Below, piece after piece: positions 17,935 through 38,571 of a stretch of 53,646 nt of DNA. Below the pieces are notes generated by a model. That model searched no databases, was not told where the DNA came from, and saw only the letters and a list, made by a program, of their open reading frames with translations. The position numbers and the translations under genes were made by a program. This DNA is from a virus (taxonomy: Duplodnaviria; Caudoviricetes). Location of the stretch: IMG/VR virus record IMGVR_UViG_3300033004_000003, positions 1 to 53,646 of that record, one strand, 5' to 3'. Position 1 is the stretch's first letter, and every line of letters starts with the position of its first letter.

Positions 17935-18458
17935 TGCCCGCAGGTAATTCATATCCAGCACCTAATCTCCCCCTGACTGGCGCTGAACAATTCACGCTGT
18001 TTCAGCAGCAAGGCTCAATCGTAGCGACGTGCACGGCGTCAATCTCTCAGCTTGCGGTCTCAATCGCTGCAAGTTCATTTTCGTCTCCCCCCCCAATTGG
18101 CAGCACAACGCCAAACACTGGCGCTTTTACTGATCTGACAGTTACAGAATATCTTGCTACATCAATTACGACTGGAATTGTCGCATCTGGAGCATCTCAG
18201 TCAACAGCTACGCTATTAACGACACAAATGAACGTCGTTAATAATGTCGGTTCAGGGACCGGAGTTTTGCTTGAGCCTGTTTCGGCGGGAACGTTCGTGC
18301 GCGTATTCCATCGCGCATCTGGTGGACACACGCTATCTGTCTATCCGCCATCGGGGCAGCAAATAGAAGCCTTGGGAACAAACAGCCCCTCTGGTATGAT
18401 ATACGGGCAATCGAATGATTATTGCTACGTTGGGAGCAACCTGTGGCTCGTGAAATAA
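17934..18458 (+). CDS. Fibre-associated protein (LTGAE motif)
   Basis: YPAPNLPLTGAEQF; IGSTTPNTGAFTDL shaft-like motif. Confidence 0.7.
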   Translation: MPAGNSYPAPNLPLTGAEQFTLFQQQGSIVATCTASISQLAVSIAASSFSSPPPIGSTTPNTGAFTDLTVTEYLATSITTGIVASGASQSTATLLTTQMNVVNNVGSGTGVLLEPVSAGTFVRVFHRASGGHTLSVYPPSGQQIEALGTNSPSGMIYGQSNDYCYVGSNLWLVK

Positions 18459-21400
18459 TGAAGAGATTTATCGCCGTGACTGCCGTTCTTGTAGGCGGCG
18501 TTGCCTACGCGCAGCCTATTCAGGGGCCATTAGAGGCGCAAAACTCTCTTGCGGAAATCACGGCGAATGGAACTCAAGCGACCGCCAGAAGCAATATTTC
18601 CGCCGCCGCAAGCGGTGCGAACTCCGACATTACGTCACTTACCGGCCTGACTACTCCGCTTGGCGGTGCTTACGGAGGGACTGGCATTAATAACGGATCG
18701 AAGACGATTACTCTGGGCGGATCACTAGCAACGTCTGGTGCCAATCCGCTGACGTTTACGACGACCGGCACGACTTCGGTAACTCTGCCGACCAGCGGAA
18801 CGCTGTTTTCCAGCGCATCAAGCATTCCGTATACAAATCTGCCGGCATTGTCAGCTAATCAGGTGCTCGGTTCTCTCACGGCAACCACACCTAGTGGCTT
18901 GTCGGTTCCTGCCTGTACGGGCGCTAATGCTGCGCTACAATGGGGCGCGGGCGCCGGATTTGGGTGTGTGACGATCAGCTCGGGGACAAATGCGCCAGGT
19001 GGGGCAAATACGAATGTCCAATATAACAACTCAACTGCATTCGGCGGCAATTCCAGCTTCACTTATAATGGCTCCGGCAGCATCGGGCTGGGAACCAGCG
19101 GTTCGACCACCGGCAATATCGCCTTCGCCAACGGCACAAGCGGCGTAGTCAATCTGACCGTCCCGACTGGCGCGCTTGGCACGGTGACAGATTATCTGCC
19201 GCTTGGCGGTACGCTGCTTACGCTCGGCACAGCGAACAATACCTATGCAACGCTGGGAGCGAACTCCAATATTACCAGCTTAACCGGGCTGACAACGCCT
19301 CTTTCCTCGTCTCAGGGCGGCAGCGGTGTGAATAATGGCTCTACCACGGAGACGCGCGCCGGCAATGTGACGTTTAGCGGTGCATATCCGGTTACACTTA
19401 CGGCGACGGGATCGACTGGCGTTACTCTGCCAACGACCGGCACTCTGCTGAATAACGTGGCGTCCAGCGTTAATACTGTAGTTGGTGCAGCATCCTCGAC
19501 GACGCGGACCGATCTGTCCGTGCCGTCCTGTTCCGGCTCGTCTAACGCGCTCCAATGGACTTCCGGTACCGGCTTCGGGTGCGGCTCCATTACCGGAACA
19601 GCGGCAACGCCTGGCGGCTCTACGGGACAGGTGCAGTACAACAACGCAGGTGCATTTGCGGCAGCGCCAGGCTTCACGTTCGACGGGTCTAGCGCCATCG
19701 GCCTCGGTGTCGCCGGTTCGACCGTCGGTAAAGCCGTGTTCAGCAACGCCACAAGCGGCTCGATCACGCTTCAAGCGCCTACGGGCGCGTTGGGGAGTGT
19801 AACGGATACGCTCCCGGATGGGGGTACGCTTCTCACCACGACTGGTAGCGGCGCGAGCCTGACGGGCGTGGCGTTCAGTGGTGCCAATAGCAATATCACG
19901 TCTTTGTCTGGATTGACCACCGCACTGTCTCCTTCCCAAGGCGGCACCGGCATAAACAACGGTTCAAAAACGGTTACGCTTGCAGGGAATTTAGCAACGT
20001 CCGGCGCGAATTCTCTGACGCTTACGACGACCGGCACAACTAATGTGACTATGCCGACCAGCGGAACTCTACTGAACACGGTAGGAAATTCAAGTTCTAC
20101 CACCGTGGAGCCATCCGACGCGACAACCGCCGTGTCTTTAGCAAACTTCTTTGATGAGACCAAAAATGTCTATTCTTATGGCGCAACTGGAAACGGTGTT
20201 TCCAATGACCTTGCGGCGGGGAATGCGGCTGCTGCTGCCGCTTCGTCAAGTGGTCAGGTTGTTTACTATCCGCCAGGGTCTTATAATTTTGGGGGAAGCA
20301 CTGGAAATACCGAAACAAACGATCCTCTAAACCTGCTCATCGGAGCAAGCTTCCCGAACGGCGCGCCTTTCGGATGCACCACGCAATTGTTCAATAATCC
20401 ATCGTTTGATCTGTGCCAGGCAATGAACGTCCAGACAGGAAATCAGTTCATGCAGGATGATACTGGCATCCTACAGCCGACCGCCGCGACAAATCCGGCA
20501 TATGAGAAAAACGTATTCAGCGCTTTTATGCAGCAAAACGATAGCAGCCCTGACTGGGCTTCCGGTGATACCCATGATGGCGTTGCCGTATTTGGTGACG
20601 CGACCATGGGGGCAAGCGTTGCTCTTGGCCGCGAATGGGGCGCAAATTTCGTAGCTAATAGCACTATGTCTGGCGCTGATGGGCTTCTGACTGGTATTGA
20701 GGTCGATATCGAGCCCGGTATAGCGCAGACGGCTCTTAATTCCCCCACATCTAAAGTAGGGTATACGGTTTTCAATCTCGGATCAGCCGAAGCGACAGCA
20801 GGCATGATCATTGGTGCGAACACATCTGGCGGCCCGACAAATGGCTTTTACAATGGCCTCGTATTCCAGTCATCCAATGATTTTGGAGGGGATGCTTGGG
20901 GGTTGTATAATACAGGCGGTAACTGGCCCGCTTGGGTAGATAATGCAGGGAGCGAAGGCGTAAACGCGCTGATTATTGGAGGCACCCCGCCATCTGGAGC
21001 TACGCCATCATTCCCGAGCCAGACGAATGGCACACTATCTGTCACATCGAGCACCACGGGCGCTATAGCTACGTTCACTGATACCGCCGCAAATGGTGCG
21101 ACCATTGCCATTACTGGGAATGGAGGAACAACTCCACATAAATTTTTGGCAGTCGGTAGCGGAAATCTATATATCAACAATAGTGCGGATTCTGGTCATA
21201 TTCTAACCCTGACTGATGCCGGAACATTAACCGTCCCTGCCGATATGCAATCGGCAGGGTTTGCGTTAACCAACCTCATGAATTATACAACAATTCCGAC
21301 GATCGCTTCCGGTTTTGGTACATCTCCATCAATTTCAAATGCAAATGGTACTGCTGCGTTTGTGTTGACGGTCGGTTCCAGCCCAAACGATACCGGCACC

Positions 21401-21595
21401 ATTACGATGCCTGCCGCCGCTCATGGGTGGGCTTGTGATGCGCAGGATGAATCCACAGTAAACTCCACGGTCTTCATGACTAGAGAGGTTGGGAATAGCA
21501 CGACATCCGTCACATTCGATCAGTTCAACAGTTCCGGTGTTGTGCAAAATTGGGCGGCGGGCGATTTATTGGTGATAAAATGCACGGCATTCTAA
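18458..21595 (+). CDS. Long fibre/spike protein with N-terminal signal peptide and internal repeats
   Basis: TAATG-coupled start MKRFIAVTAVLVGGVAYA|Q; GANS.ITSL.GLTT repeats; NVYSYGATGNGVSND...YYPPGSY tailspike entry motif. Confidence 0.85.
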   Translation: MKRFIAVTAVLVGGVAYAQPIQGPLEAQNSLAEITANGTQATARSNISAAASGANSDITSLTGLTTPLGGAYGGTGINNGSKTITLGGSLATSGANPLTFTTTGTTSVTLPTSGTLFSSASSIPYTNLPALSANQVLGSLTATTPSGLSVPACTGANAALQWGAGAGFGCVTISSGTNAPGGANTNVQYNNSTAFGGNSSFTYNGSGSIGLGTSGSTTGNIAFANGTSGVVNLTVPTGALGTVTDYLPLGGTLLTLGTANNTYATLGANSNITSLTGLTTPLSSSQGGSGVNNGSTTETRAGNVTFSGAYPVTLTATGSTGVTLPTTGTLLNNVASSVNTVVGAASSTTRTDLSVPSCSGSSNALQWTSGTGFGCGSITGTAATPGGSTGQVQYNNAGAFAAAPGFTFDGSSAIGLGVAGSTVGKAVFSNATSGSITLQAPTGALGSVTDTLPDGGTLLTTTGSGASLTGVAFSGANSNITSLSGLTTALSPSQGGTGINNGSKTVTLAGNLATSGANSLTLTTTGTTNVTMPTSGTLLNTVGNSSSTTVEPSDATTAVSLANFFDETKNVYSYGATGNGVSNDLAAGNAAAAAASSSGQVVYYPPGSYNFGGSTGNTETNDPLNLLIGASFPNGAPFGCTTQLFNNPSFDLCQAMNVQTGNQFMQDDTGILQPTAATNPAYEKNVFSAFMQQNDSSPDWASGDTHDGVAVFGDATMGASVALGREWGANFVANSTMSGADGLLTGIEVDIEPGIAQTALNSPTSKVGYTVFNLGSAEATAGMIIGANTSGGPTNGFYNGLVFQSSNDFGGDAWGLYNTGGNWPAWVDNAGSEGVNALIIGGTPPSGATPSFPSQTNGTLSVTSSTTGAIATFTDTAANGATIAITGNGGTTPHKFLAVGSGNLYINNSADSGHILTLTDAGTLTVPADMQSAGFALTNLMNYTTIPTIASGFGTSPSISNANGTAAFVLTVGSSPNDTGTITMPAAAHGWACDAQDESTVNSTVFMTREVGNSTTSVTFDQFNSSGVVQNWAAGDLLVIKCTAF

Positions 21596-21609
21596 TTCCG
21601 GGGTTCTAA

Positions 21610-22353
21610 ATGGCCTATAACTACACCCAATACCAGGTCAAACTTGGAACCCTAATGGCGCTTACGAGCGCCAATCCGGCATCGCCGCCGACTGATCCGT
21701 ATTTCGCGCAGATTTTGCCGGCGTGTATAGATTACGCTGAGCAGAGGATTTACCGCGATCTCGATATCCAGAGCACGACCACAGATGCGACAATTTATAC
21801 GACTGCCGGAACGCCGCTTGTAAGTCTGCCGTCTAATCCTCTAGTTTATGTTGTGGAGAGCATGAGTGTGGTGACGGTTGGTGGCAACGCGCCTTCAATC
21901 ACCGCGCAAACCAACATGAGCCCGGTTGATAAGAACTTCCTGACTGCCACATTCCCGCCTGCGTTCTGGTCTACGGCGCAGGGGATGCCGCAATACTACT
22001 ATATACAAGATCAGAACATCGCCTATATAGGGCCGACGCCTGATCAGGTCTACGGGCTGTACATCGTTTACACGTATCGTCCGACGACGCTTAGCGCGAC
22101 AAACACGACGACGCCGCTTACGCAGATATGGCCAGATTTGTTCTTGGCGTGCAGCATGGTATTCATGAGCGGATACATGAAGAATTTCGGTGCGCAATCC
22201 GACGATCCGCGCATGGCAGGCTCGTGGGAAGCGCAATATCAAGCGTTGCTCAAAGGCGCACTTGAGGAAGAGAGCCGCAAGAAATCGCTCGGAATTGTAT
22301 ACACGCCTCTGCGTGCTGCTGCGTTCAGCGGCAAGCCTACTCAGGCGCAGTAA
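21610..22353 (+). CDS. Tail adaptor/tubular protein (putative)
   Basis: IDYAEQRIYRDL...GMPQYYY...IGPTPDQVY...Y.YRP.TLS...WPDLFLAC. Confidence 0.75.
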   Translation: MAYNYTQYQVKLGTLMALTSANPASPPTDPYFAQILPACIDYAEQRIYRDLDIQSTTTDATIYTTAGTPLVSLPSNPLVYVVESMSVVTVGGNAPSITAQTNMSPVDKNFLTATFPPAFWSTAQGMPQYYYIQDQNIAYIGPTPDQVYGLYIVYTYRPTTLSATNTTTPLTQIWPDLFLACSMVFMSGYMKNFGAQSDDPRMAGSWEAQYQALLKGALEEESRKKSLGIVYTPLRAAAFSGKPTQAQ

Positions 22354-24377
22354 TGCCCATAGCCTCCGTTAAACTCCGCCCCGGCGTTGACGTAGAGCGG
22401 ACCTTCACGCTGAATGAGGCGGGGATTAGCCAGACGCAACTCGTGCGGTTTAAAGATTCACTAATTCAATCAATCGGCGGATGGGTCCAGTGGTATTCCC
22501 AAACTCTGCCATACGCGCCGCGCGTTATCCTTAGCTGGACAGACCTTAACGGCACCGTTTACACGGCAGTAGGGACGTCAAGCGATATTTACGTTATTAG
22601 CGGAAACACGGCGACTGACTTAACGCCAACCAACATTATCGAGAATGTCGCGCCCGAGTTCTCGACGGTTGCAGGGTCTAACGTTGTTACCGTGGACGCA
22701 TCTGGCACAACTCCGATTGTCGGCCTTGGTATATTCATCAACACCCCCGTTTCTGTTGGCGGCATCATCCTGATGGGTGGCTATACAATCGAAGCGCCGG
22801 TTTCCGGTGGTAATTACACGATCACGGTAGCGAACAACGCCACATCGACCGTGAATAATGGCGGCTCTGTGGCGCAATACACGACGACGATGGGCAGCAC
22901 GGCCATCAATGTCATGCTGAATAACCACACTGAAACTTTAGGCTCGCAGTGGACCGAGAAAGTATCTACTTCCGTTGGCGGAATCACGGTTTCGGGCAAT
23001 TACATCGTCTCAGCGATTGTTGACGCAAATAACTTCACGATCAATTCCACGTCTCCCGCCACATCTAGCGCGTCGGCTTATGAAAACGGTGGATTAGTCC
23101 AGACAGTCTATTACCAGAATGCCGTACCACCCACGCTACCAAACTACGGTTATGGCGTTGGCGGATATGGCCTCGGTGGCTACGGCCAGGGCAGCGTTTA
23201 CGTGCCGACTTCGCCTATCTCCGCACCGCTGTGGACGCTGGATCATTGGGGCGAGACGCTGTTGGCTTGTCCTGGGAGCGGCCCTATCTACTCATGGACG
23301 CCGGGGTTAGGAGAAACGACGCTCCAGATAATAGCCAATGCGCCTGCGGTCAACGGCGGCATCTTCGTGGCCATGCCGGCGCAAATCCTTGTGGCATGGG
23401 GCAGCAGCATAAATGGCGTGCAGCAGCCTAACCTTGTGCAGTGGAGCAATCAGCTCGATTACACAGACTGGACGCCTACAGTGACTAATCAGGCCGGAAA
23501 CGCGACGATCCCAACGGGAAGCCGGATCGTCGGGGCCATACAGGCTCCAAACCAAGCGCTGATATTCACGGATATTGACGTTTACGCCATGAACTATCTC
23601 GGCGCATCTGGCAATATCCAGCTTGTGTTCGGGTTCAACCAGATCGCCAAGGGCTGCGGACTTATCGCGCCTCGCGCCGTGGGTGTGCTGAATGGCTCTG
23701 TATTCTGGCTGTCTCCTGGGCAGTTCATGACGCTGGGACAGAGCGGCGTTGTTCCTATGCCATGTCCGGTATGGGATGAAATTTGGCAGGACTTGGACAC
23801 AAACAACCTGAATAAGATCATCGTCGCGCCGAATAGCGTGTTTAACGAAATCGCGTGGTATTACCCTTCGATTTCTGGCGGCACAGGTGAGAATGATAGC
23901 TACGTTAAGTTTAACATGCTGGAAAACGCATGGGACTACGGAAAACTTGTCCGCACGGCCTGGCAGGACTATTCGGCGGCTGGCAATCCATTGGGCGGCG
24001 ATGCTTCTGGCTATCTGTGGCAGCATGAGGTTGGGCAAACCGCAGGCGGCCAGCCCATGAATTGGAGCTTCAGCACTGGCGCGTTCATGATTGCGGAAGG
24101 TGACCAGATGGCTTTTGCCGACTGGATTTTGCCGGACATGCGATATGGGTTCATAAACAACTCGTCCACAAATCAGAATGTGTCTCTAGTTGTGTCGTCT
24201 TACCGATACGCGAATGACGCCCCCGTCACGTCTCCAACGCTGACAATGACGCCACAAGGAAACGGAGAGTTGTCTCTACGCATCCGAGGGCGTGCGATGC
24301 AGCTTACATTCAGTGGGAATGGTTTTGCCCGCATCGGCAATGTGCGCTATCGCTGGGCACCTGATGGGAAATACTGA
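22353..24377 (+). CDS. Tail nozzle/stabilization protein (P22 gp10/T7 gp12-like, putative)
   Basis: VKLRPGV...VRFK...IGGW; WTLDHWGETL; VQWSNQ.DY.DW; RIRGRAMQL. Confidence 0.75.
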   Translation: MPIASVKLRPGVDVERTFTLNEAGISQTQLVRFKDSLIQSIGGWVQWYSQTLPYAPRVILSWTDLNGTVYTAVGTSSDIYVISGNTATDLTPTNIIENVAPEFSTVAGSNVVTVDASGTTPIVGLGIFINTPVSVGGIILMGGYTIEAPVSGGNYTITVANNATSTVNNGGSVAQYTTTMGSTAINVMLNNHTETLGSQWTEKVSTSVGGITVSGNYIVSAIVDANNFTINSTSPATSSASAYENGGLVQTVYYQNAVPPTLPNYGYGVGGYGLGGYGQGSVYVPTSPISAPLWTLDHWGETLLACPGSGPIYSWTPGLGETTLQIIANAPAVNGGIFVAMPAQILVAWGSSINGVQQPNLVQWSNQLDYTDWTPTVTNQAGNATIPTGSRIVGAIQAPNQALIFTDIDVYAMNYLGASGNIQLVFGFNQIAKGCGLIAPRAVGVLNGSVFWLSPGQFMTLGQSGVVPMPCPVWDEIWQDLDTNNLNKIIVAPNSVFNEIAWYYPSISGGTGENDSYVKFNMLENAWDYGKLVRTAWQDYSAAGNPLGGDASGYLWQHEVGQTAGGQPMNWSFSTGAFMIAEGDQMAFADWILPDMRYGFINNSSTNQNVSLVVSSYRYANDAPVTSPTLTMTPQGNGELSLRIRGRAMQLTFSGNGFARIGNVRYRWAPDGKY

Positions 24378-25252: not shown

Positions 25253-25723
25253 ATGAGCGAAGTCCGCATAGCAACGCCAGCCGACCGTGACGGGATGATT
25301 GATCTGCTGCACATGATGTACGCCGAAAATGGCGTTGCGTCATTGAGCGTGCAAAAGATGTTGGCGTTTCTTGATCGAGGGTTAGCGCGCGATTACTCGA
25401 TCATCGGCATTGTCGAAGATGAAGGTGTGATAAAGGCGAGCATTGGGCTTTTCCTGCACCAATGGTGGTACAGTGAAGATTATCACGTTGAAGATACGTG
25501 GTGTTTTGTGCATCCAGATTACCGGAAGTCAACTTATGCCAAGGACTTGCTGAAGTTCGCCAAGAAATGCGCGGATGATCTTGATATGCAACTGCTGATT
25601 GGCATCCTGTCTAGCGAGAGAACTGCGGCCAAGGTTCGGCTTTACGAGAAAGAATTTGGTCCTTCAATGGGATGTGGATTTGTTTACCCGCATCCTCGGG
25701 CAACTGATAAGGAAGTCGCGTAG
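25253..25723 (+). CDS. GNAT-family acetyltransferase
   Basis: VRIATPAD...FVHPDYRKSTYAKDLLKFA...RLYEK. Confidence 0.8.
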   Translation: MSEVRIATPADRDGMIDLLHMMYAENGVASLSVQKMLAFLDRGLARDYSIIGIVEDEGVIKASIGLFLHQWWYSEDYHVEDTWCFVHPDYRKSTYAKDLLKFAKKCADDLDMQLLIGILSSERTAAKVRLYEKEFGPSMGCGFVYPHPRATDKEVA

Positions 25724-28700
25724 TGGGCAAAGGTTCAAGCACGACTACCAGCAAGACGACGCCAGCCCCGCAAGCAGAAGCGATGGGCAACCAGGCATGG
25801 AGCGCGGCGCAGTCTGCGGCGTCTAATCCATACCAATATTACCCAGGCCAGCTTGTCGCCAATCTCAACCCCGACCAGATGCAGGCGTTTAATACCGTCG
25901 CGCAGTCTCAGGGTATTGCAAATCCGTATATCAATGCAGCGTCTCAGCTAACCAGCTCCGCTTCCCAACCAATTGGCGCGTCTCAGATCAATCAGTACAT
26001 GAACCCGTATATCGGGGATGTCGTTGGTACAACCGCCGCCGAGATTAACCAAAACAACGCCATTCAACAGAACCAGCTACAAGGCAACGCAGCGGCACTT
26101 GGCGCCCTCGGCGGCAACCGCGTGGGCATCGCACAGGCGGCGCTCGCCAACCAGCAGGCAATGGCGGAAAATCAGACTTTATCAGGACTGTATCAGGGCG
26201 GATACAATACCGCGTTGCAGGCCGCGCAGACACAGAACGCGCAGCAGCTACAGGGCGCTTACGAATACGCCAACCTTGGTACTGAGGCGCAGACAGCGGC
26301 GCTTACCGGCGCGAACGCTCAAATCCAGACGGGCGGCATCGAGCAGCAACAGCAACAGAACATCCTGAACCAAGCCTATTCGCAGTGGCTTGGAGCGCAG
26401 CAATACCCGTTTCAGACTGGCCAGTATCTCACGAATACGGCGGGTACACTGGCGGGGCTGTACGGTGGGACATCGTCCACGACAATTCCGGCGCCGTCTA
26501 CGTTCTCGCAGATTGTGGGTGGTTTGACTGGCGTTGCTGGTATCGTCGGCGCTGCGCGCGGCTCCAAAGTCGGTGGACGGATTAATAATGATCTCGGCGG
26601 CTTGGATGGATATGACAGCGGCGGGTTTGTCGGGCCTACTCAATTCGCAGGGCCAGAAGCGCCTCCGCCCTATGATCCAAATAAAAACGTTGAGGCTAAA
26701 GCGTTTGGCGGACGTATTGGCTATGACGATGGTGGATTTGTTGGCCCTACGCATTTCTCTGGTCCGCAAGCTCCACCGCCGTATAACCCCAATAAAAATG
26801 TTGAGATGAAAGCCGATGGCGGACGCATTGGCTACGATGGCGGCGGCGGTATCCCGTACCAAATTGGCGGCATACAGGCTCAAGACCTAACTGGGATGTC
26901 CCATCCTGTTGGATATGTATCAAGCGCTGGCACGGCTGGCGCTACACACTTTGCTGGTCCGCAGGCTCCGCAAGGGTACGATCCGAACAAAAATGTAGAT
27001 CAATCTTCCGGTTTGTCGAAGCAACAAGTGACAGATTTGGGAAGCCTATATGAAGGCGCAAAAAATTACATCAATGGAGCATACGGCCCGACGATGGGGG
27101 GAGGCATAGGAGGCGGGACCAGCGATGCAGCCATGGTTGCTCATCAAGGAGGCCAAAAATCAGGAGGTCGTGTAGGTCGCGCATCTGGCGGTCAATCGGG
27201 CAATACGCCTTCCACGGGCGGCTTGTCTGGCCTTACCGCGTCTCTGTCTAACCCGACCATGACAGAGGGGCAGCAGATTGAGAACTACCAATTCCTGTCG
27301 CCAATGATATCAACAGGCCGCGCGCCGGAAGTAGGGCAGCAGCAGCAACAGCAGCAAGAAAGCCCGCTGCAAGAGGAACAAGCCGAGGAACAAACGCTCG
27401 CCTCTATGGCTGGCCATGCTCATGGCGGACGTGCTGCAAAGGCTGGCGGTGGAAGTCTAGGCGCGCTGCCTACGCCGCAATATGTAGGCACTGGCCCCGC
27501 ACAAACGGCCCCGCAGCCGACAAGCACGGCGGGAACGCAACCCACGTCTTGGGGCAATGTGCAGATGCCATCTGCGCCGATGCTGGCGGCTCCTCAAGGC
27601 GCTGCGCCGGGCACGGGACAACTGCCAGCACTCGGCGGACAAGCTGCGCAGAATTTTGCGGCCAGTTACACCGGCTCGCAAGACCCATACGCGGCATACA
27701 TACAGAGCCTTACCGGCGCCAATCCGTCCGCTGGCAACCGTGCGCCGGGAGTGAACGCGACGACTGCATCAGCAACACCCGCAACCACGGTATCTCCCGG
27801 TTTGGCGGCGCTACTCAAGTCTTGGGGGGTTAATGCATCGGGCATGAAGTCTGGCGGTCGCGCTGGCTATGACGTGGGTGGCGATGTAGCGAATACGCCG
27901 CAAGATTTGGGCAGCACTGCCACGCCAGCCCCAGTTACTGCAACGCCAATTCCGGGCGTGTCGCCAGACTACGTTGCCCGCGTAAACCACATCGAGAGCG
28001 GCGGAAATCCTGCCGCGACTAGCTCGACCTCTACAGCTTCCGGCTTGGGGCAGATTACCGTCCCGACTGCTAAAGCGCTCGCCCCCAGTTTGGCTGGACT
28101 AAGTGACCAGCAGGTGCAGAAGATGGTCCAGCAGCCCGCTGTATCCAACGATCTAACTGCGGAGCTTGCCAAGAAAAACGCCGCATATCTCACGGCAAAT
28201 AATCTGCCTGCCAATGACGGAACTGTTTACCTCGCCCACAATTTCGGTGCAGGCGGGGCCAAGGCATTGCTGACTGCTGATCCGAATACACCAGTTGAAA
28301 ACGTGCTGCCGAAAGAGGACATTACGGCAAATCCCGATCTGGAAGGCAAGACAGTCGGACAAGTCATTGCCAGCCGTTATGCCGAAGTTGGCGCGAAAGT
28401 TGCTCAAAACACCGCCCAGCAGCCGAACTACGGTGGGAACCAGACCGCGACGGACACAAGTCCACTGCCTCCCATCGGTGGAGATCAGGGGCTTGCCACA
28501 TATCAGCAACAGGCTGGAAACGCTCAATACAACTTGACGCAGCCGCAACAGACTGAGGTTGACAAGTTTGCTAATTCGCCGTGGATGGCGCTGGCACAGG
28601 CTGGGCTTGCCACTATGGCCGGAACATCGCCGTTTGCGGGGGTGAACATCGGTGCTGGTGGTCTGGCGGGGCTGCAATATCTGCAAAGCACGCAGGGCCA

Positions 28701-29931: not shown

Positions 29932-32900
29932 ATGCCACTCGACCAGTCCGTCTTGTCGCAATTTAGCCAGGTAGCCACGCCACTTCCTGGCGGAAATACG
30001 CCTGCACAGACGCCGCAACAACTATTTAATGCCCCGCAGCCACAGCAACAAGGTGCGCCGATTTCGTCGGTCATGGGGCAATTCCAGAAGGCCGCGCAGC
30101 CGTTACCGGGGACGTCTGCCCCAGATGATCAGCAACCAACAGGACCGCCGCAACGGGGTGGATTTTTTCGCAACGTGGCTGCTGGAGTTCTTGGAGTTCC
30201 GCAGGAAATCGCGGATGTCGGCAAGACGTTTTATGAACGCACTTTTAATCCTGAATATCAGCCGACATTGCCGACTTCTGCTGGACAGAAAGAATATGCT
30301 TCTCGCGGGGCTAATGTAAGGTACGGATTTACGCCAAATTCCACGCCCCTAACTCCGGTGCCGGAAGCTAACATTCCGGGCGTAACACCGTTTATTCAAG
30401 GAACCACACAAAAAGGACCGATGGACTACGTTGGTCAAGGCATCGGGCAAATGCTGCCTATGGCTTTGGCGCCGGAAGCTGAGGCGGGATTGCTTGTACG
30501 TGGCGCCAAGGCTGCAGCGACTGGCGCAGCTAGTGGCTTAGGGTCAATAGCTGGAGGTGCTTTGGCGAGTGCCGTTGGCGCGCCTCGGCAAGCCGGCGAG
30601 TTCTGGGGCAGCCTAGTCGGCGGCTTCGGTGCGGCTGGCGCTGGTGCGCTGGCATCCAAGGCTGGTTTGGGAGCCCAGGGGCTTTCTGAGATCGCTCCGG
30701 TCACGCAAGGTATGCAGGAGCGCTATGCGGCCAGCAAAATACGCCAGTTTGGCGGTGAGAATATAGGCCAACAAGTGGAAGCGGCGCGTGGGACGCAGCC
30801 AATCGTTCCTGGCTCCATGCCTACTGCCGCGCAAGCCGCTCGCAGTCCTGAATTGGCAAGACTAGAGACGGCTCTGACAGAGAGCGGACAAGGCGTTTAT
30901 CTGCAAGAGGCGCAGGCGGCGCAAGGTGCAGCGCGTTCTGCGCATATCCAAGGCGCGCAATTTACACCCGAACAGGCCGAGGCGGCGCGTATTTCCGGCG
31001 TAGCGCCAACACCGGGAACGCCTAGCAATCTTAGCGAATATCTGACACAAGCCCGCGCCACGGATGAACAGAACTTGGCGTCTCCGATAGCGGTTGCAGA
31101 GCAATCGCGCGCTGCTGGAATCAATGAGCCGCTAATGGCAACGCCTGGCGCAAAACAACCCGCTCTGGCATCGGTTGCCAATGCTCCTGAGGCTTACCAG
31201 GCTGGCGCGGCATTGCGAGCGCCTATTAGTGCTGGAGATCAGACAAGGCAGATCGCCACGTCCAGGCTTTACAAGGCTTTGGATGAGCGAAATCCAGTTC
31301 TGAATATGGCGCCAATGGCTGATGCCACGGGCGCAATTCAGAAGAATATTGAAGAGGCAGGCCTACAAAACGTCTCTGGAGATGAGAAGAATATCTACCA
31401 GCGCGCCCAGGAAATGGGCCAATCCGATGGCGTGACGTGGAAAAAAGTTAATGGATTCCGAGCGGAACTGAACGACGCCGTAACTAGCTCTATAGACCCA
31501 AAAACTGGACGCTCTACCGCTTCAACTGCGCGACTTCAGGGGCTGAAGCGTGCTACTGACGACGCGATCAACACGGCAATTGACCGACACGTCGAACAAA
31601 ATCCGGACGTTTATCAAGCGCCTCTGGCGGAACAGGCGCGTTTGTGGAAGCAGGCAAAGACACAAGATGAACGACAAGCCGCAATCTCTGGACAAGGATC
31701 TACTGGAACTCCGCAGGGTAATCTTGCAACATACGGACAGCCTAGCGGAGCAGGCCGAGTTGGCGCAGCACCTGGAACAATGGGCGCGCAGCCGACAGGA
31801 CTTCCGAACGCTCCGGGCGCTGGCGGAATGGCGCAAAGAGGGGCCGAAGGCAGCATAAACCCAGAGTGGTCACAAGAGGACGTTGACAACTATCGCGAGG
31901 CTTTGAAGTCTCATGCCCAGCGCATGGGGCTGTATTGGAACAAGTACATATCGCCAATTCTAGCAACCGATCCGGGCGGAGATTTCCGTATGCCGGATGA
32001 GGCGGTCATTAAAGCTGCGCTGCCTGGTGGCGACAAATCTAGGCAAGCGGCGAAACTCATAAAGAGCATCGCAGCCGACAAGCCTAGCGTACTGGACGCA
32101 TACGGACAGGCGATGGCGCTAAGCCTGCGAAATGCCGCAGTGAAGGATGGCGTTAACGTCGATCAGAACGCGCTCAACCGATGGATGGAAAACCATTCAG
32201 GGATGCTTTCCGTGTTCCCAGAAGTGGCGCAGAAAGTGCGCAACATCAAAGGCGCACAGGATATGGTGGAGAAGGCAACTGCCGCACGAGAAGCGGGGCT
32301 TGAACAGTATAACCATCGCGCTATCCAAGGGATACTGAACGGAGACGATCCTGAAGTCGCCATGAAGACCGTGATGGGGGGCTCGCCAAGCGATGCCCGG
32401 AAATTTATGGCGACAATACAGAAAAATCCCGCCGCGATAGCCGGCGCTCGAGCTGCTGCGGCGAACAATCTTGTTGACCGTTTAGTTAAGAGCGGCGACA
32501 AGCCAGACGCGCGGATTGCGTCTCTTGAGGCGATCTTGCGCGATCCTAAGCAGCGCCAAAACATGGGGATTGTCCTAGGACCGCAAGCGGAGATAGCATT
32601 ACGTCGAGTGCTCGAGGATGAGCGCGCGACGAATAGCTACGCTTTGGCACGCGCCGCTAAAGCCGGGAGCCCAACCGCTTTCTATGGTGCAGCTAAGGAA
32701 GAATTGCAGCGCCCTACAACTTGGCTTGGAAGCATCCTTCATAGCATCAATCCGCTTGAGGCAATGGTTGGCGTTGGCGAAGCCGCGCCGTTTCCTGTCC
32801 GCGCTGCCGTTGGCGTGTTCGACAGCATTCTCAGAAACTTCTCGACAAATCGTGTACAAGCCGCGCAAAGATTTCTGGCCAAAACATTAACAAGCCCGGA

Positions 32901-33021
32901 AGCAACTGCCGCCGTGTTGCGGAAGTATTCGGATAAGCCCAGCGCCATTAAGCAGTTTACGCGCTCAATGGCTAAGATTATTCTCGCCCACCAAGCTCAA
33001 CCGCAAGGCCAGAACCAATGA
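29932..33021 (+). CDS. Large internal virion/ejection protein
   Basis: 1029 aa, Ala/Gln/Gly-rich helical, follows ejection protein. Confidence 0.7.
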   Translation: MPLDQSVLSQFSQVATPLPGGNTPAQTPQQLFNAPQPQQQGAPISSVMGQFQKAAQPLPGTSAPDDQQPTGPPQRGGFFRNVAAGVLGVPQEIADVGKTFYERTFNPEYQPTLPTSAGQKEYASRGANVRYGFTPNSTPLTPVPEANIPGVTPFIQGTTQKGPMDYVGQGIGQMLPMALAPEAEAGLLVRGAKAAATGAASGLGSIAGGALASAVGAPRQAGEFWGSLVGGFGAAGAGALASKAGLGAQGLSEIAPVTQGMQERYAASKIRQFGGENIGQQVEAARGTQPIVPGSMPTAAQAARSPELARLETALTESGQGVYLQEAQAAQGAARSAHIQGAQFTPEQAEAARISGVAPTPGTPSNLSEYLTQARATDEQNLASPIAVAEQSRAAGINEPLMATPGAKQPALASVANAPEAYQAGAALRAPISAGDQTRQIATSRLYKALDERNPVLNMAPMADATGAIQKNIEEAGLQNVSGDEKNIYQRAQEMGQSDGVTWKKVNGFRAELNDAVTSSIDPKTGRSTASTARLQGLKRATDDAINTAIDRHVEQNPDVYQAPLAEQARLWKQAKTQDERQAAISGQGSTGTPQGNLATYGQPSGAGRVGAAPGTMGAQPTGLPNAPGAGGMAQRGAEGSINPEWSQEDVDNYREALKSHAQRMGLYWNKYISPILATDPGGDFRMPDEAVIKAALPGGDKSRQAAKLIKSIAADKPSVLDAYGQAMALSLRNAAVKDGVNVDQNALNRWMENHSGMLSVFPEVAQKVRNIKGAQDMVEKATAAREAGLEQYNHRAIQGILNGDDPEVAMKTVMGGSPSDARKFMATIQKNPAAIAGARAAAANNLVDRLVKSGDKPDARIASLEAILRDPKQRQNMGIVLGPQAEIALRRVLEDERATNSYALARAAKAGSPTAFYGAAKEELQRPTTWLGSILHSINPLEAMVGVGEAAPFPVRAAVGVFDSILRNFSTNRVQAAQRFLAKTLTSPEATAAVLRKYSDKPSAIKQFTRSMAKIILAHQAQPQGQNQ

Positions 33022-33803
33022 CCACCACATTCACCCCAAACCGAAACTACTCCCTTCCCGGAACCGGCGATGACGTAAACTCATGGGGGCCGGTTATCAA
33101 CGCGAATTTTAGCGCGATTGATAGCAATATCTCTGCCCAGAATATTATAACCACGACTGGCGGAACTACGACGCTCACGACGGCACAGGGCGCTAATTTA
33201 TATTTCCCAATTACCGGCGCCCTCACGTCGAACGCAACAATCATATTCCCTGGCACTGCCACATTTTTCTTCGCGTCCAACCAAACCACAGGGACATATA
33301 CGACAACTTTGTCTGCCGCTGGCGGCGGGGCTAGTGTTGTTCTGCTCCAAGGAACTGCTGGCGTTTTCTGGACCGACGGCACGAATATATACCAAGTTGG
33401 CGGCGCTCCCGTAAATTCTATCCCATCTGGCACCATCATGGGTTCGTTCTTGCAGGCTAGCGCCCCTACGGGATGGGTTCAGATCAATACGTTCAACGAC
33501 CAGGTTATCCGTGTGGTTAATAACACTGGGACAGGTGGCGCGACGGGCGGCTCTTGGACCGTGAGCGGGTTTAACGACAATCCAATCGCGCTGACGATCG
33601 CGCAAATTCCATCGCATAATCATACGATTGAACTTAATATCAATGGGCATGTAGCGGCTGGCGGAAGCCTTGCTCCAGGTGAAAACACAGGGACATTTAC
33701 GACAGATAATACTGGCGGCGGCGGAACTCACAATCACGGCGTTTATAATGACGGCACTTGGAGGCCAAGTTTCGTGAACGCCATCGTTTGCCAGAAAAGC
33801 TAG
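33018..33803 (+). CDS. Tail fibre/collar-like protein (no signal peptide)
   Basis: SWGPVINANF..ID; IPSGTIM..F.QASAPTGW; LTIAQIPSHNH; GGGGTHNH. Confidence 0.8.
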   Translation: MTTTFTPNRNYSLPGTGDDVNSWGPVINANFSAIDSNISAQNIITTTGGTTTLTTAQGANLYFPITGALTSNATIIFPGTATFFFASNQTTGTYTTTLSAAGGGASVVLLQGTAGVFWTDGTNIYQVGGAPVNSIPSGTIMGSFLQASAPTGWVQINTFNDQVIRVVNNTGTGGATGGSWTVSGFNDNPIALTIAQIPSHNHTIELNINGHVAAGGSLAPGENTGTFTTDNTGGGGTHNHGVYNDGTWRPSFVNAIVCQKS

Positions 33804-33811: not shown

Positions 33812-34135
33812 ATGGCATATCGAAACGCAAATAACTGCAAGAAATGCCCCAAAAATAACGGGCCTGATGGATGCCCTTGGTGGTGGGAATACACAGAAAC
33901 CAATGCAAGCGGCGAAACTCGTATCACGAAGGAATGCGGCATCGCGGCGCTGCCTAAATTTCTCGGTCACGTGCTGGCCGCGAGCAATCGCCCTGCTGCG
34001 GCCATAGAAAGCACACGAAACGCTTTAGTCGAAGCGCTAAACGGTGTAGGGCAGGTACTGGATAAGCGCATAGATCAATCGGTCGCAAAGCTGGCGCAAG
34101 ATAGCGTGGCGCTGATAGGAAAAGACAATGCGTAG
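33812..34135 (+). CDS. Cys-rich small protein, possible fibre assembly factor
   Basis: AGGAG RBS; CKKC...CPWW...ECGIAALP. Confidence 0.7.
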   Translation: MAYRNANNCKKCPKNNGPDGCPWWWEYTETNASGETRITKECGIAALPKFLGHVLAASNRPAAAIESTRNALVEALNGVGQVLDKRIDQSVAKLAQDSVALIGKDNA

Positions 34136-34595
34136 TTTATGGATCGCTGTATTTCTTCTGTTTGCGCCTATTGTCGCACATGCGCAATCCACGCCTAATC
34201 CCGTATCAACGTGGTGCGCGTCATCCGCCGCAGGTCCGTGGACGCCTTGCGTTGGTAGTGGAGGCGGCTCCCCGTCATCGCCATCTTACATCAAGCCCGG
34301 CACATATACTGAAGTACCTCTCGATATTGCTACAACCACATCAGCAAATGTTGCTGTTGCGGCTTTAAGTGCCGGGCATCGATCTGCCGGCGGGTGGATA
34401 CAAAATCCGCCAACGGCGACAACCGTCATCTGTGTGAATACGATCACCACAGCGGCTTTCTCCAGCGGTGCATGCATCGGCAGCAACAATGCGATTTCTC
34501 CGGGGCAGGTATTTAATATCCCGGCCAATGCAAATGCGGTCTCGGTTGTATCGTCTGATGCAACGCATCCGTTTAGCGGGGAAGGGTTGCAGTAA
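34128..34595 (+). CDS. Secreted-type small beta protein (signal peptide, 2 Cys pairs)
   Basis: MRSLWIAVFLLFAPIVAHA|Q. Confidence 0.8.
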   Translation: MRSLWIAVFLLFAPIVAHAQSTPNPVSTWCASSAAGPWTPCVGSGGGSPSSPSYIKPGTYTEVPLDIATTTSANVAVAALSAGHRSAGGWIQNPPTATTVICVNTITTAAFSSGACIGSNNAISPGQVFNIPANANAVSVVSSDATHPFSGEGLQ

Positions 34596-36172
34596 TGAAA
34601 AAGCTATTCACCACATTATTTCTGCTGTTGTGCGCCCCTACCTTCGCGCAAGTTCAGAACGCTGGCGGCTTCGGCCCTGGTCCAACTCCCGGCATCGCAG
34701 CCAATGGCGGCACCGGCAACAACATCACTCTGAACGGCACCACGAACATCACGGGCAGTGCCAGCAACGCCGTGACGCAGCCGCCTGTGGATAATACCGT
34801 CCGCATTGCCACCGATCAGTTTGTGCAGTCCCTATTCGCCGTCACGCGCTCTACCGTGTACCTCTCCGGCGTGACAGGCGGGACGCTGAGCTTTGCCTCC
34901 GTCGGCACCGGGGCGGCGTTCAGCTTCACCGCGACAGGCGGCGTTATTACGTCCATCGATTCCGTATACGCGGGCGGCTCCGGCTACAAAGTCGGCGACG
35001 TGCTGTATATACCGCGAGGCAACTATGACAACTATATCATGGTCACGGGGGTTTCCGGGACCGCGATCACGTCGGTCAAAATCCTCAATGGCGGCACCGG
35101 CAATACGAGCGGCCTCGACATTACCGCAATGGCGGCTATCGAAGCGCCGATTATCTACAATATATCCGGCACGCTTACTTCCAACCTCCAGGTCATCGCC
35201 TCTAACGGTGCGGTGCTTGGCTATTCCGGCATCTTCCTGCTCATCAACAATACCACGGGCAACTATACCGAGAGCGTTTGCATCAGCAACGGCTCTGACG
35301 CCTGCAACGGCAACGGCAGCGTGGTTATCCCCCAGGGCAGCGGGAATAGCTGCGCCACTCTGACATATACGGATGGCTCTACGCCCTGGCTGGTGTCTCC
35401 TACGGAGTGTGGCGCGGCGCAGTTTGCCTCGGTCAATCTTGGCTCCAACGTCTCCGCCGCTAACTGGTCCACCACAAGCCCGATGTTCAATGTCCCGGCC
35501 ACCACGCTCACGGATACCACGGGCAGCGGAACGATTGCACTGCGCGCGGCGGAGACGATTAATAACTGCACGTTTGCGGCGTCGAGCAGCGAGACGATCA
35601 CGAATGCGGCGTGTTTGTATGTAGGAAGTCCTGCCAACGGAACGAATGTAACGGAAACAAGCAGCTATTCCATTTATGCAACTGGAGCCATTGATACTAC
35701 AAGCAATTTGGTTGCTTCAGGTAACATACTCGGAAATAGCGTACAGGCTACCGGAAATAATTCCGTTGATGCTGGTATTAACAGGCCATCAAGTCACACA
35801 TTAGGATTTCAAACTAGCGCAACCTCAGCTGGTGTGATTGACGCAAACCAAAACTGGCGCATCGGCGGCGCCGGTACGCCTACCATATCCAGCGGCGCAT
35901 GCGGCACAGGCACCAATGGCAGTATCGCAGCAAATGGTAACAATCAGGGCTTTGAAGTTGATATCGGCTCTGCCGCCACAACTACCTGCACGATTACTTT
36001 TGCCAATTCTGGCTTTGTGACAGCGCCGCGAGAGGCACAACTTACCGCGCACAACGCCGCCGCCGCAGCGCAGGGCACAACGCTCGCCTATGTAAGCAGC
36101 CTCGGAACCACAACGATGGTGATTACCGGGAGCGCCCTAGCTAATGCCAATTATTATGTGCAGGTTCAATAA
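34595..36172 (+). CDS. Fibre-like protein with signal peptide
   Basis: MKKLFTTLFLLLCAPTFA|Q; DNTVRIATDQFVQ fibre motif; GGSGYKVGD. Confidence 0.8.
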   Translation: MKKLFTTLFLLLCAPTFAQVQNAGGFGPGPTPGIAANGGTGNNITLNGTTNITGSASNAVTQPPVDNTVRIATDQFVQSLFAVTRSTVYLSGVTGGTLSFASVGTGAAFSFTATGGVITSIDSVYAGGSGYKVGDVLYIPRGNYDNYIMVTGVSGTAITSVKILNGGTGNTSGLDITAMAAIEAPIIYNISGTLTSNLQVIASNGAVLGYSGIFLLINNTTGNYTESVCISNGSDACNGNGSVVIPQGSGNSCATLTYTDGSTPWLVSPTECGAAQFASVNLGSNVSAANWSTTSPMFNVPATTLTDTTGSGTIALRAAETINNCTFAASSSETITNAACLYVGSPANGTNVTETSSYSIYATGAIDTTSNLVASGNILGNSVQATGNNSVDAGINRPSSHTLGFQTSATSAGVIDANQNWRIGGAGTPTISSGACGTGTNGSIAANGNNQGFEVDIGSAATTTCTITFANSGFVTAPREAQLTAHNAAAAAQGTTLAYVSSLGTTTMVITGSALANANYYVQVQ

Positions 36173-38571
36173 TGAAAAAACTCATCGCAGCTATTTGGCT
36201 TCTTGCAACTCCGGCGCTCGCCGCCAATTATGCCAGCCCGACATATAACAACATCACGACCACCGGAAATATCACATCAAACAGCGGAAAAATCATCGCT
36301 GTTGTCCCTACCGACGCGGCGCTAAAGGCTCTCCCACTGACGGGATTTAGCGCCGGAACCATTGTGCAGGATACTGGATATTATGCTGATGGAGATATGC
36401 CGCCTGTCGAGTATTCGCTGCAAAACTCGGCATGCTCGCTGAATGCTGGCGCGGGTGATGGCGGATCGCAAATCCCCTCCAATACCTCTGGACACTGCTG
36501 GGTTTTGACGCCGCAGAATAGCTACGACGCGCGCATTTGGGGTGTGGTAGCGGATTATAATGGGACGACCGGGACCGAAAACACGACGGCGCTGGCGAAT
36601 GCTATCTCGTTCGCGGAAGGAAGCGCCGTCCAGGGTGCCGCACGACACCTGACACTGCCTGCTGGTGAAATCCTCACTGGGGCGCAAACGGTAAATGGTA
36701 GTATCAGGATAACCGGCGCTTCTGCGATTGCAACCACGCTTGTTCTGAAAAGCGGCGTCAATGCTCCGATCCTCACGACACTGATCACTAGCACAACGGG
36801 GCCATACGCGACAGCGCCCGAGGTGTATTATTCTGATCTATATCTCACCAGCGTTGATGGTCAGTCGGCAGTTAGTGAGACGGGTGCTTACGGCCTATCC
36901 TTCCCAAGCGGCGGCACGAACACTTTTGTATATCTCGACCGCATCAGCGTGGACAATATGCCGGCCGACGGTATAAACGGACATGGGTTCGTCGGATTTG
37001 TGCGCGCGAGTGTCGTGTACCTGCGCGCAAACGGAGGCAACGGCCTTTCCAGTAATTCCGACGAGGATTGGATACTCATAGGGGCCAATATTGACGGCAA
37101 TACCAGCAACGGCATCTTAAGCTCCGGTGACGGTCAATTTTATCTGAATAACATAAACTCGTTTGACAATCACGCAAATGGCGTTGAATTGTACGGGCAT
37201 GAAGCGGTAACTTTCGACGGCCACAACGAGTTCAACCTGAACGATCAAGATGGACTGCTCGTCGCCAACCAATCAAGCGGCAGCAATCTTTCCGTGATCT
37301 CTTTTAATGGGAATGTTGTGTTTGGGAATAACTCGTACACCGCTCCTAATACCTATTCAGCTATCGAGGTAAAGGGTGGCAGCGGAGCAGTCATAAACCT
37401 GCTTGGTGCATCGTTCATTGCTCCTTACGGGCAAAATTCCAGCAACCAAGAGAAATATAACGTCAATTTCACGAACTCCACGACAAATAATGTTTTTTGC
37501 GTCTCGTGTAATTTCTCTGGAGGATCTGGCGGGGCTTATGTCACCAACAACTTATCGCTACTAAATACGCTAGAATTTCCGTCTTCCGGCTCAGGCTGGA
37601 CGGTTAATGGTGCGCTGGCCGTTGCAAATGGAGCGACGTTTAACGGCACAACGAGTTTCGTTGGTGATTCTACGTTTGGAAGCACAGCCAGCTTCGCAGG
37701 GGCGGTTCAGCTGGGCGGCGGAATTAATGCCGGCAGCAACAATGTCCAAGTCACAGCCTCGACTCAATATCGAGGAATTACCGTAAGCAACGGGACGAAC
37801 ACGATTGCAGCAATCCAGGGCCATTCGTCCACAAACGATAATGGCGTTTTAACGCTGTATAACTCTGGCGTTCAGTCCGTTTCTATCGGCGGAACTGGCA
37901 GTAATTCGTTGTCAAATACGCTTTTATTAGGATCACCCGCTTCTGGATCAACGCCGGGAAATGGGCAGGTGCAGGCGCAGGCTGCGTCTGGTACAAATAT
38001 CAACGGCGGATCATTATATCTAATCGGATCGCTCGCTACAGGCACCGGCATTGACGGTGACATTGTGATAAAAACCGGCACCAACCCGGGATCGTCCGGT
38101 ACGACGCAGGCTACCGCAAACACTGCCGTGACGATTAAAGGAGAGACGCAAGCCCTAATCGCCAATGCGGGCTTGGAGGTTGGCTCCCCATCCGGCACTT
38201 TTGAAGGCACCGGCACAACCAATCAAGCTTCCGATTTCTACCTCAACGGCAAGAAAACCATGAGCGAAACGGCGTCTACGATCTCGTCCGGCTTCGGAAC
38301 TGGCGATGCGATCTCCCAGGCTAACGGTGATGTGGCGTTTGTCGATACCGTTGGATCAAGTTCCGGCTCTACGGCAACCTTCACAATGCCAGCCGCGACT
38401 AACGGATGGGATTGTTCGGCCTACGATCAGACAACCAATACGATTGATATTGTCCAAAGTGGTCAAACATCAACTAGCATCACCTTTAAAAGCTACCTCC
38501 GTACCACTGGGGCACTGACCGCCCCTACGGTAGGTGATGCTATCCAGATCGGTCCGTGTGTGGGGCATTGA
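36172..38571 (+). CDS. Tailspike-like parallel beta-helix protein with signal peptide
   Basis: MKKLIAAIWLLATPALA|A; TGYYADGD, DARIWGVVAD...ALANAI, N..NG repeats. Confidence 0.8.
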   Translation: MKKLIAAIWLLATPALAANYASPTYNNITTTGNITSNSGKIIAVVPTDAALKALPLTGFSAGTIVQDTGYYADGDMPPVEYSLQNSACSLNAGAGDGGSQIPSNTSGHCWVLTPQNSYDARIWGVVADYNGTTGTENTTALANAISFAEGSAVQGAARHLTLPAGEILTGAQTVNGSIRITGASAIATTLVLKSGVNAPILTTLITSTTGPYATAPEVYYSDLYLTSVDGQSAVSETGAYGLSFPSGGTNTFVYLDRISVDNMPADGINGHGFVGFVRASVVYLRANGGNGLSSNSDEDWILIGANIDGNTSNGILSSGDGQFYLNNINSFDNHANGVELYGHEAVTFDGHNEFNLNDQDGLLVANQSSGSNLSVISFNGNVVFGNNSYTAPNTYSAIEVKGGSGAVINLLGASFIAPYGQNSSNQEKYNVNFTNSTTNNVFCVSCNFSGGSGGAYVTNNLSLLNTLEFPSSGSGWTVNGALAVANGATFNGTTSFVGDSTFGSTASFAGAVQLGGGINAGSNNVQVTASTQYRGITVSNGTNTIAAIQGHSSTNDNGVLTLYNSGVQSVSIGGTGSNSLSNTLLLGSPASGSTPGNGQVQAQAASGTNINGGSLYLIGSLATGTGIDGDIVIKTGTNPGSSGTTQATANTAVTIKGETQALIANAGLEVGSPSGTFEGTGTTNQASDFYLNGKKTMSETASTISSGFGTGDAISQANGDVAFVDTVGSSSGSTATFTMPAATNGWDCSAYDQTTNTIDIVQSGQTSTSITFKSYLRTTGALTAPTVGDAIQIGPCVGH

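Follow-up and report, generated by a model that had tools for sequence, protein, structure and literature searches.

The virions of tailed phages are, in the textbook account, assembled wholly in the cytoplasm. Why, then, should four fibre- or spike-like proteins of one such phage begin with what appear to be Sec signal peptides? The window analysed here is the whole virus record IMGVR_UViG_3300033004_000003 (53,646 bases), which has direct terminal repeats, is estimated to be 100% complete and represents an uncultured soil phage of 53.6 kb. A preliminary description of this sequence had singled out the four proteins, here called A, B, C and D, and had proposed that they are exported and join virions at or after lysis. 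We find that their leaders are very probably functional export signals, and modelling predicts that A docks on a short fibre protein that has no signal peptide. The fuller proposal, that A-D are exported, acquire disulfide bonds in the periplasm and join, at lysis, virions built in the cytoplasm, is in our judgement evenly poised. The genes and their predicted leaders are as follows.

18458-21595, + strand: protein A, 1045 amino acids (aa); leader MKRFIAVTAVLVGGVAYA, then Q
18458-18511, + strand: predicted Sec signal peptide of A, residues 1-18, ending A-Y-A before Q
34128-34595, + strand: protein B, 155 aa; leader MRSLWIAVFLLFAPIVAHA, then Q
34595-36172, + strand: protein C, 525 aa; leader MKKLFTTLFLLLCAPTFA, then Q
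36172-38571, + strand: protein D, 799 aa; leader MKKLIAAIWLLATPALA, then A

The predicted leaders are 17-19 residues long (A 1-18, B 1-19, C 1-18, D 1-17). By direct reading and by a rule of our own, all four have the layout of Sec-type substrates of signal peptidase I, i.e., a basic n-region, a hydrophobic h-region of 7-15 residues and small residues at positions -3 and -1 (the n/h/c layout), so that the N-termini stand as first described. The strict form of the rule flags A, B, C and D, and flags neither the fibre at 33018, which had been described as lacking a signal peptide, nor the stub fibre at 17934. Of 78 greedily called open reading frames (ORFs) of the window, a looser scan picked out B, C and D alone; A escaped it because it had been entered with a longer TTG start at 18422. 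The cleavage positions that the strict rule outputs are unreliable, and statistics on the +1 residue were therefore not drawn. A permissive form, applied to hits of a search with A, errs both ways, with false positives (P0047 and P0052) and a missed leader (P0038).

Other export routes do not fit these leaders. The twin-arginine motif (S/T-R-R-x-F-L-K) of the twin-arginine translocation (Tat) pathway is absent from A-D, whose n-regions (MKR, MR, MKK and MKK) contain no RR pair. The lipobox of signal peptidase II, searched for as L-[AS]-[GA]-C, was likewise not found in the four proteins: the leaders of A, B and D contain no Cys, and Cys13 in the leader of C, which follows L-L-L, recurs in no more than 7 of the 24 homologs aligned. 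Some A-like relatives have a borderline lipobox, G-A-C-A-Q.

The start codons are supported by the stop/start overlaps noted earlier at 18458, 34595 and 36172 (17934-18458/18458, 34128-34595/34595 and 34595-36172/36172). B has no other ATG, GTG or TTG from the upstream stop to codon 70, D has no alternative start before codon 65, and A has none after codon 7. C offers a TTG at codon 12, which lies within the hydrophobic core, and no further candidate until the GTGs of codons 60 and 65, past residues conserved in homologs. True starts 3' of the hydrophobic segments, a concern raised in the preliminary description, are excluded, as no usable start codon was found there.

Conservation in homologs, another point on which the preliminary description had asked for evidence, speaks for the leaders. 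A word-indexed search with C yielded 33 other proteins, all metagenomic, and the strict rule finds a leader in 29 of them; the four that fail comprise one protein cut at its N-terminus and three that match only the C-terminal fifth of C. Leaders were found by the same rule in 14/17 homologs of D and in a single one of 17 homologs of the stub fibre (16/17 without). Mature parts of C homologs are 67-90% identical, and yet their leaders are wholly different (for example, MKKALLAFLFVICQSIPAIA then SPPP, MKTILKLLCFVVLALGTSGAYA then Q, and MIFRKLAAALGLLGLLLPAAAGAQA then T). A property that is kept while its sequence is free to change is the hallmark of a functioning signal peptide, and this comparison supports the view that the hydrophobic N-termini behave as real, selected signal peptides rather than chance stretches. 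The conserved part sets in shortly past the predicted cleavage site, 3-5 residues beyond it in the relatives of A. Residues 1-175 of A, used as query in an exhaustive search without profiles, matched 2051 proteins at E <= 0.001, a number that reflects how widespread the shaft repeat is; the best 149 hits were compared. In 12 stored relatives of A, the motif G-P-L-Q-A-Q-N lies at residue 21-28, straight after a hydrophobic leader in 12/12 and internally in none; the permissive rule turned down one of these leaders, that of P0038, because of an over-extended start.

The second line of evidence comes from cysteines, which are located as follows.

Protein A: Cys 153, 170, 358, 375, 640, 653, 993, 1042
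Protein B: Cys 30, 41, 102, 116
Protein C: Cys 229, 237, 253, 272, 325, 340, 436, 465, plus Cys13 within the signal
Protein D: Cys 88, 109, 443, 446, 748, 796

The mature chains of A, B, C and D thus have 8, 4, 8 and 6 Cys, the even counts first obtained by eye. In homolog alignments, neighbouring Cys pairs are kept or lost together.

Pairs in the C family: both Cys 59, neither 13, one only 2
Pairs in the D family: both Cys 16, neither 9, one only 3
Pair 153/170 of A: both Cys 10, neither 1, one only 1

When each Cys was matched, as a control, with the partner of the next pair, 15/54 (C) and 10/17 (D) were discordant. Among the 149 best hits of the A search, a P-x-C...L-x-W...F-x-C module occurs in 17/52 leader-like and 3/97 signal-less proteins by the permissive rule with its false positives, and two of these three module-bearing "signal-less" hits (P0038 and P0108) are in fact leader-bearing, with a start misplaced or cut. 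Median Cys content is 0.65% in the leader-like proteins versus 0.24% in the others (Mann-Whitney p = 3e-4). It is the pairing pattern of the Cys that is informative, not their amount: the even numbers, together with conservation and co-variation as pairs, are of the kind expected for disulfide bonds, as far as sequences can indicate.

The bodies of the proteins are those of fibres and spikes, and the motifs reported for them (NVYSYGATGNG, DNTVRIATDQFV and C-TGANAALQWGAGAGFG-C) are present in the translations. A has, after its signal peptide, shaft repeats with Cys-pair modules at 153/170 and 358/375, the pectate-lyase-like start motif NVYSYGATGNG and a C-terminal domain common to D:

21290-21577, + strand: C-terminal domain of A, common to D; it holds the conserved Cys993, with Cys1042 just past the span

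The C-termini of A and D are 45% identical over 97 residues (BLASTP, E = 9e-21); an AlphaFold2 model of this domain was too uncertain (mean predicted local distance difference test score, pLDDT, 58). C has its leader (residues 1-18), a conserved fibre N-domain (DNTVRIATDQFV) and four Cys pairs. D consists of the leader (residues 1-17), a right-handed beta-helix at about residues 40-450 and the domain common to A. In the AlphaFold2 model of D, 10-residue blocks over 41-420 have pLDDT 73-95, with dips of 57-58 at 91-100 and 151-160; the whole-chain mean is 60.4, and the model is unreliable past residue 450. Foldseek searches of the PDB with this model gave 58 matches at E <= 0.001, the top one being CBA120 TSP2 (E = 5.6e-9, template modelling score, TM, 0.37/0.42), and others including Klebsiella Depo32 and DpK2, Acinetobacter tailspikes and bacterial WceF. 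On the strength of the model, D has a tailspike-type parallel beta-helix fold. D has no Pfam match at E <= 0.01 and hence none to the Beta_helix or Pectate_lyase_3 profiles, and its homolog P0204 has weak, sub-threshold matches to Beta_helix and NosD. None of A-D matched Pfam or PHROG families, and neither A nor C matched GenBank phages by tblastn, a search in which the low-complexity filter may mask shaft repeats.

In B, the leader (residues 1-19) is followed by a small beta-sandwich-like domain with four Cys. In an Atlas search, B resembled viral hypothetical proteins of small size (125-133 aa; score 0.92) and, weakly, cupin or jelly-roll proteins with TM < 0.5. ORFs at the same position in the related contigs L004 and L003 were considered as homologs of B and rejected, their BLASTP matches being not significant (E = 4 and 21). 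B is preceded by a fibre without leader:

33018-33803, + strand: fibre E of 261 aa, without signal peptide and with a single Cys; matches phrog_12796 (tail fiber), E = 5.6e-10

Between fibre E and B lies a small ORF (33812-34135, + strand; MAYRNANNCKKCPKNNGPDGCPWWWE...) with four Cys in CxxC-like spacing and no family match.

If A is exported, how could it return to the particle? The genes immediately 5' of A suggest an answer.

17680-17934, + strand: 84-aa ORF, no signal peptide, N-terminus YPSPNTPLTGAELF...; no Pfam family
17934-18458, + strand: stub fibre, 174 aa, no signal peptide; C-terminal knob at about residues 77-174, the predicted docking site of A

The N-terminus of the 84-aa ORF may be a paralog of that of the stub fibre, a role suggested by likeness seen by eye. 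The stub gene directly precedes A, and its C-terminal domain spans about 100 residues. A gene for this domain followed by a signal-bearing fibre gene is an order kept in the window and in two otherwise different contigs: in L004, the stub-domain gene 8474-9265 precedes a leader-bearing G-P-L-Q-A-Q-N fibre at 9266-10315, and in L031, 62-1570 precedes such a fibre at 1555-3297, behind which lies a lysis cassette whose ORFs include a lysozyme-like one and one with a lipobox. We modelled three copies of stub residues 70-174 with three copies of residues 19-110 of mature A, both given as alignments. The interaction prediction scores from aligned errors (ipSAE) were 0.94, 0.93 and 0.94, against 0.21 for the best of three controls, and express model confidence, not binding, in a set-up (3+3 chains and our own alignments) that differs from the tool's calibration. 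The mark used for ipSAE was reached in that calibration by 58/80 solved complexes and 2/110 mismatched pairs. The pLDDT of the partners was at least 77, and contact agreement across runs was 100%. The predicted interface lies between stub residues 133-161 and 173-174 and A residues 19-36, i.e., from the predicted +1 residue of A onward. A is thus predicted to be a virion-attached fibre whose post-cleavage N-terminus docks on a signal-less stub. Such docking fits the proposal that exported fibres join virions at or after lysis; of that proposal, the export part has gained selected signals and paired Cys, and the joining part a modelled contact for A.

From these data, we infer how export, cleavage, disulfide formation and attachment would be ordered in time and place. 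A, C and D would be distal tail-fibre or tailspike modules and B a small accessory protein. Late in infection, the four would be exported unfolded to the host periplasm, where signal peptidase I would cut off the leader and the chains, forming local disulfide bonds, would fold into trimers; the cytoplasm would be the place where capsids and tails are built, together with the short stub fibres that lack a signal. Holin-driven lysis would join the two compartments, and the new N-terminus of mature A (QPIQGPLEAQN...) would enter the C-terminal knob of the stub, completing the virion end to end in a manner comparable to the T4 long tail fibre, which is made from separate proteins. The ends that bind and cleave the receptor would be the exported parts, and oxidative folding would lend them robustness; D, and probably A, have a depolymerase-like beta-helix body. 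More tentatively, and with chances that we place slightly short of even, tailed phages may have a two-compartment assembly route, in which Sec-exported fibres are clicked onto stubs at lysis, that occurs widely among the soil and water phages infecting Gram-negative bacteria and extends to cultured Burkholderia and Shewanella phages.

Several points weigh against this reading. The signal calls rest on our own crude n/h/c rule and on reading of the sequences, not on SignalP, and the model of A with its stub departs from the calibrated set-up. No docking partner is known for B, C or D. Assembly across two compartments has no in-vivo precedent that we could find, and dilution after the burst would be unfavourable to it. 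Neither Dsb nor thioredoxin nor signal-peptidase families were found among 59 window ORFs scanned against Pfam. Cys density is ordinary (A 0.77%, D 0.75%, versus 1.64% in the terminase) and no higher than in cytoplasmic proteins of this phage, and part of the Cys co-variation may stem from swapping of whole modules. In L004, a leaderless module (12357-12710) starts M-ANYPSPTFNNLTL and resembles mature D; the ORF at the position of B in L003 has no leader and no Cys; and one homolog of the stub domain, P0200, itself bears a leader.

The best-surviving alternative, although we consider it unlikely, is that A-D are exported but are not virion parts, acting as soluble periplasmic or released proteins that bind or cleave polysaccharides. 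Secreted depolymerases or decoys had been named in the preliminary description as well, and for B, C and D this option keeps some probability. Possible roles of such proteins include trimming host exopolysaccharide (EPS) or O-antigen, destroying receptors so that progeny are not trapped, and blocking superinfection. The fold of D, which matches depolymerase tailspikes as well as Pantoea WceF, a bacterial glycanase bearing a (Tat) signal, would suit these roles, and so would the want of a known virion partner for B, C and D. In L004, moreover, a related phage of 60 kb, a run of leader-bearing fibre genes ends with an adjoining leader-bearing SASA-type carbohydrate esterase (12620-14596, PF03629, E = 6.9e-8), likely a receptor-modifying enzyme. 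Against this alternative, A is predicted to dock on a signal-less fibre, with the gene pair kept in three phages, and A-D bear typical fibre shaft repeats and fibre N-domains. Their genes lie in translationally coupled late structural operons, between two SU10-type adaptor paralogs and after the internal-protein genes, which we count as support for a role in the virion. They fill about 7.5 kb of the 53.6 kb, and the phage otherwise has only one 261-aa fibre and two small stubs.

A second alternative, which we regard as improbable, holds that the hydrophobic N-termini are uncleaved structural elements, such as a trimerisation plug or an anchor in the virion or membrane, and that folding and attachment are cytoplasmic. 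This would agree with the established rule of cytoplasmic assembly for tailed phages, with the lack of leaders in all other virion proteins of this phage and with the leaderless state of some homologous modules. The full n/h/c layout and the small residues at -3 and -1 are nevertheless kept while the sequences drift freely, which is typical of cleaved signals and not of structural contacts. Conservation that sets in only 3-5 residues past the predicted site, the Cys-pair module that tracks the presence of a leader, and the predicted stub contact through A residues 19-24, the first after the site, also argue for cleavage. Finally, that the leaders are artefacts of wrong start codons or chance hydrophobic stretches can be set aside as extremely improbable: ORF callers can over-extend starts, as with the TTG at 18422, but alternative starts downstream are lacking, 4/4 fibre-like ORFs pass the strict rule with 0/74 other greedy ORF calls flagged in the looser scan, and the leaders are conserved in dozens of homologs.

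Judging from its genes, the window is a complete SU10-like podophage. The assignment was made because of the structural genes present: portal (PF23899, E = 5e-16), adaptor and nozzle proteins of the SU10-type module were all matched, and a large terminase (PF17289) was also found. No near DNA-level relative was detected among GenBank phages by megablast of 10 kb of the window.

16346-17050, + strand: SU10-type adaptor paralog 1, PF24175, E = 3.5e-9
21610-22353, + strand: SU10-type adaptor paralog 2, PF24175, E = 1.2e-22
22353-24377: nozzle or "stabilization" protein, phrog_3287, E = 2.9e-57
25723-29931 and 29932-33021: two very large proteins

The two adaptor paralogs (16346-17050 and 21610-22353) illustrate the setting of the signal-bearing genes in the structural operon. 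They bracket a block at 17047-21595 that comprises a Cys-rich 209-aa ORF, two stub fibres and protein A. Among 126 GenBank records matched by the nozzle protein, the best is an uncultured spring-water phage, MW202675.1 (40% identity, 95% coverage), whose fibre gene has no leader. A GNAT acetyltransferase (PF13508/PF00583; 25247-25723, + strand) lies directly 5' of the 1402-aa internal protein, and MW202675.1 is annotated with the same layout, "putative acetyltransferase" followed by "internal virion protein D". In the head-gene region, the phage encodes a Cpn10/GroES-like co-chaperonin (10688-11110, + strand, PF00166, E = 6.9e-7).

As to the host, a GcrA cell-cycle-regulator-like protein is encoded at 3138-3599 (+ strand, PF07750, E = 1.5e-18). 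The GcrA family is typical of Alphaproteobacteria and their phages, and this gene is at odds with the Terriglobia label that a related contig bears: L004 (= L029) was placed in a metagenome-assembled genome (MAG) of Terriglobia, and L031 in one of Pseudomonadota. A DUF7666 protein (PF24703, E = 1.4e-32; 47743-48468, - strand) has a homolog in L003 (13751-14620, - strand), which bears a long run of STGDYGAAS-like repeats.

Directly 3' of D is a putative cluster of lysis or membrane proteins.

38617-39913, + strand: 79-aa ORF, 98-aa ORF and DUF1003 protein

The 79-aa ORF has two hydrophobic segments and the 98-aa ORF a C-terminal one; by these features the small ORFs may be holin-like. The third protein matches PF06210 (E = 4.7e-25). 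In 38600-45000, a crude lipobox scan picked out two reverse-strand ORFs, both implausible, and no lipoprotein-type outer-membrane spanin; the ORFs tested against Pfam gave no match to an endolysin family.

Should the proposed assembly route be true, such phages would need the Sec, signal peptidase and Dsb functions of the host to be infectious, and intracellular particles would be non-adsorbing until lysis. Receptor-binding proteins of such phages would need oxidative or periplasmic expression for production or engineering. Gene callers and curators tend to trim such leaders, and with leader-trimmed annotation, host-range prediction from fibre sequences would miss a whole class of proteins.

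How do A-D compare with known systems? In the T4 long tail fibre (gp34-37) and in the CBA120 and G7C complexes, a distal receptor-binding protein is fixed by its N-terminus to another fibre protein, and particles can take up T4 fibres or P22 tailspikes in vitro. To our knowledge, however, the fibre partners of T4, CBA120 and G7C are all cytoplasmic and none has a signal peptide. Virion proteins with cleaved Sec-type leaders are found in filamentous phages, i.e., pIII and pVIII, and pIII is disulfide-bonded in the periplasm. Inoviruses are extruded at the membrane, whereas the window is that of a tailed phage with terminase, portal and nozzle.

WceF of Pantoea stewartii (PDB 6TGF) is described as a trimeric tailspike-like beta-helix glycanase with an export signal that acts on the cell's own exopolysaccharide; the signal is of the Tat type, which exports folded proteins, and the gene lies in a chromosomal EPS cluster (PMC7949094). 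D shares the tailspike fold (WceF ranks 26 among its matches, E = 2.5e-6). The window proteins differ from it in having a Sec-like instead of a Tat leader and in lying in a phage structural operon instead of an EPS cluster, and WceF has no fibre shaft or docking N-terminus; neither the Tat leader nor the EPS-cluster location of WceF/AmsF-like glycanases was found for A-D. Late phage proteins that are exported by host Sec before lysis, with action coupled to holin triggering, include fOg44 Lys44 (with a Sec signal), SAR (signal-arrest-release) endolysins and the T4 antiholin RI (PMC6116005). These are lysis enzymes or regulators, in contrast to the virion components proposed here. Papers on phiCbK and JC1 mention signals for lysis proteins only, and in a catalogue of extracellular contractile injection systems (eCIS), signal peptides appear in the reference list only. 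A full-text literature search found no publication on Sec-exported tail fibres or their attachment at lysis. From the records and papers covered, the trait appears to have been noted in passing in one GenBank record, and a studied account was not found.

That record belongs to a cultured phage. Residues 41-150 of D match six GenBank records, including a Shewanella phage, an identical record filed as Hujiaoplasma phage, and the Burkholderia phages Bcep781 and Bcep43. Bcep781 gp49 (also Bcep43 gp48) is Cys-rich and, like D, has a leader, MKKNKHVLFGVLLTACGLPAFA then Q; its identity with residues 45-150 of D is 37%, over a stretch that takes in the A-C-S-L...C-W Cys pair, and its gene is at the expected place of a tail-fibre gene, after baseplate genes. 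In GenBank, it is annotated as "possible tail fiber; possible signal peptide domain", a caveat to the statement in the preliminary description that fibres normally lack signal peptides. Bcep781 differs in being a myophage, with a contractile tail instead of a podovirus tail, and its leader is merely noted in the record. The Shewanella phage vB_Sb_QDWS has a 687-aa ORF after a "tail fiber protein" gene; the deposited gene start is 807 bases downstream, which leaves the leader outside the annotated protein, and no publication on this leader-bearing ORF was found. In the deposited Shewanella phage record OK094664.1 (L041), the full frame 3473-5536 has a signal peptide and fibre motifs, and the deposited start at 4280 is probably a mis-annotation; an opposite-strand "hypothetical protein" (3355-3939) overlies the 5' part of the fibre frame. 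Such cultured phages make the question raised by A-D directly testable. The vB_Sb_QDWS ORF combines the same Cys-pair module with a pectate-lyase-like beta-helix (PF12708, E = 2.6e-5), and its leader is MIKKILLTALLVPAMALA, then Q; it is followed by QTYPSPTFNSLTL, and the mature sequence YPSPTFNSLTL resembles the start of mature D.

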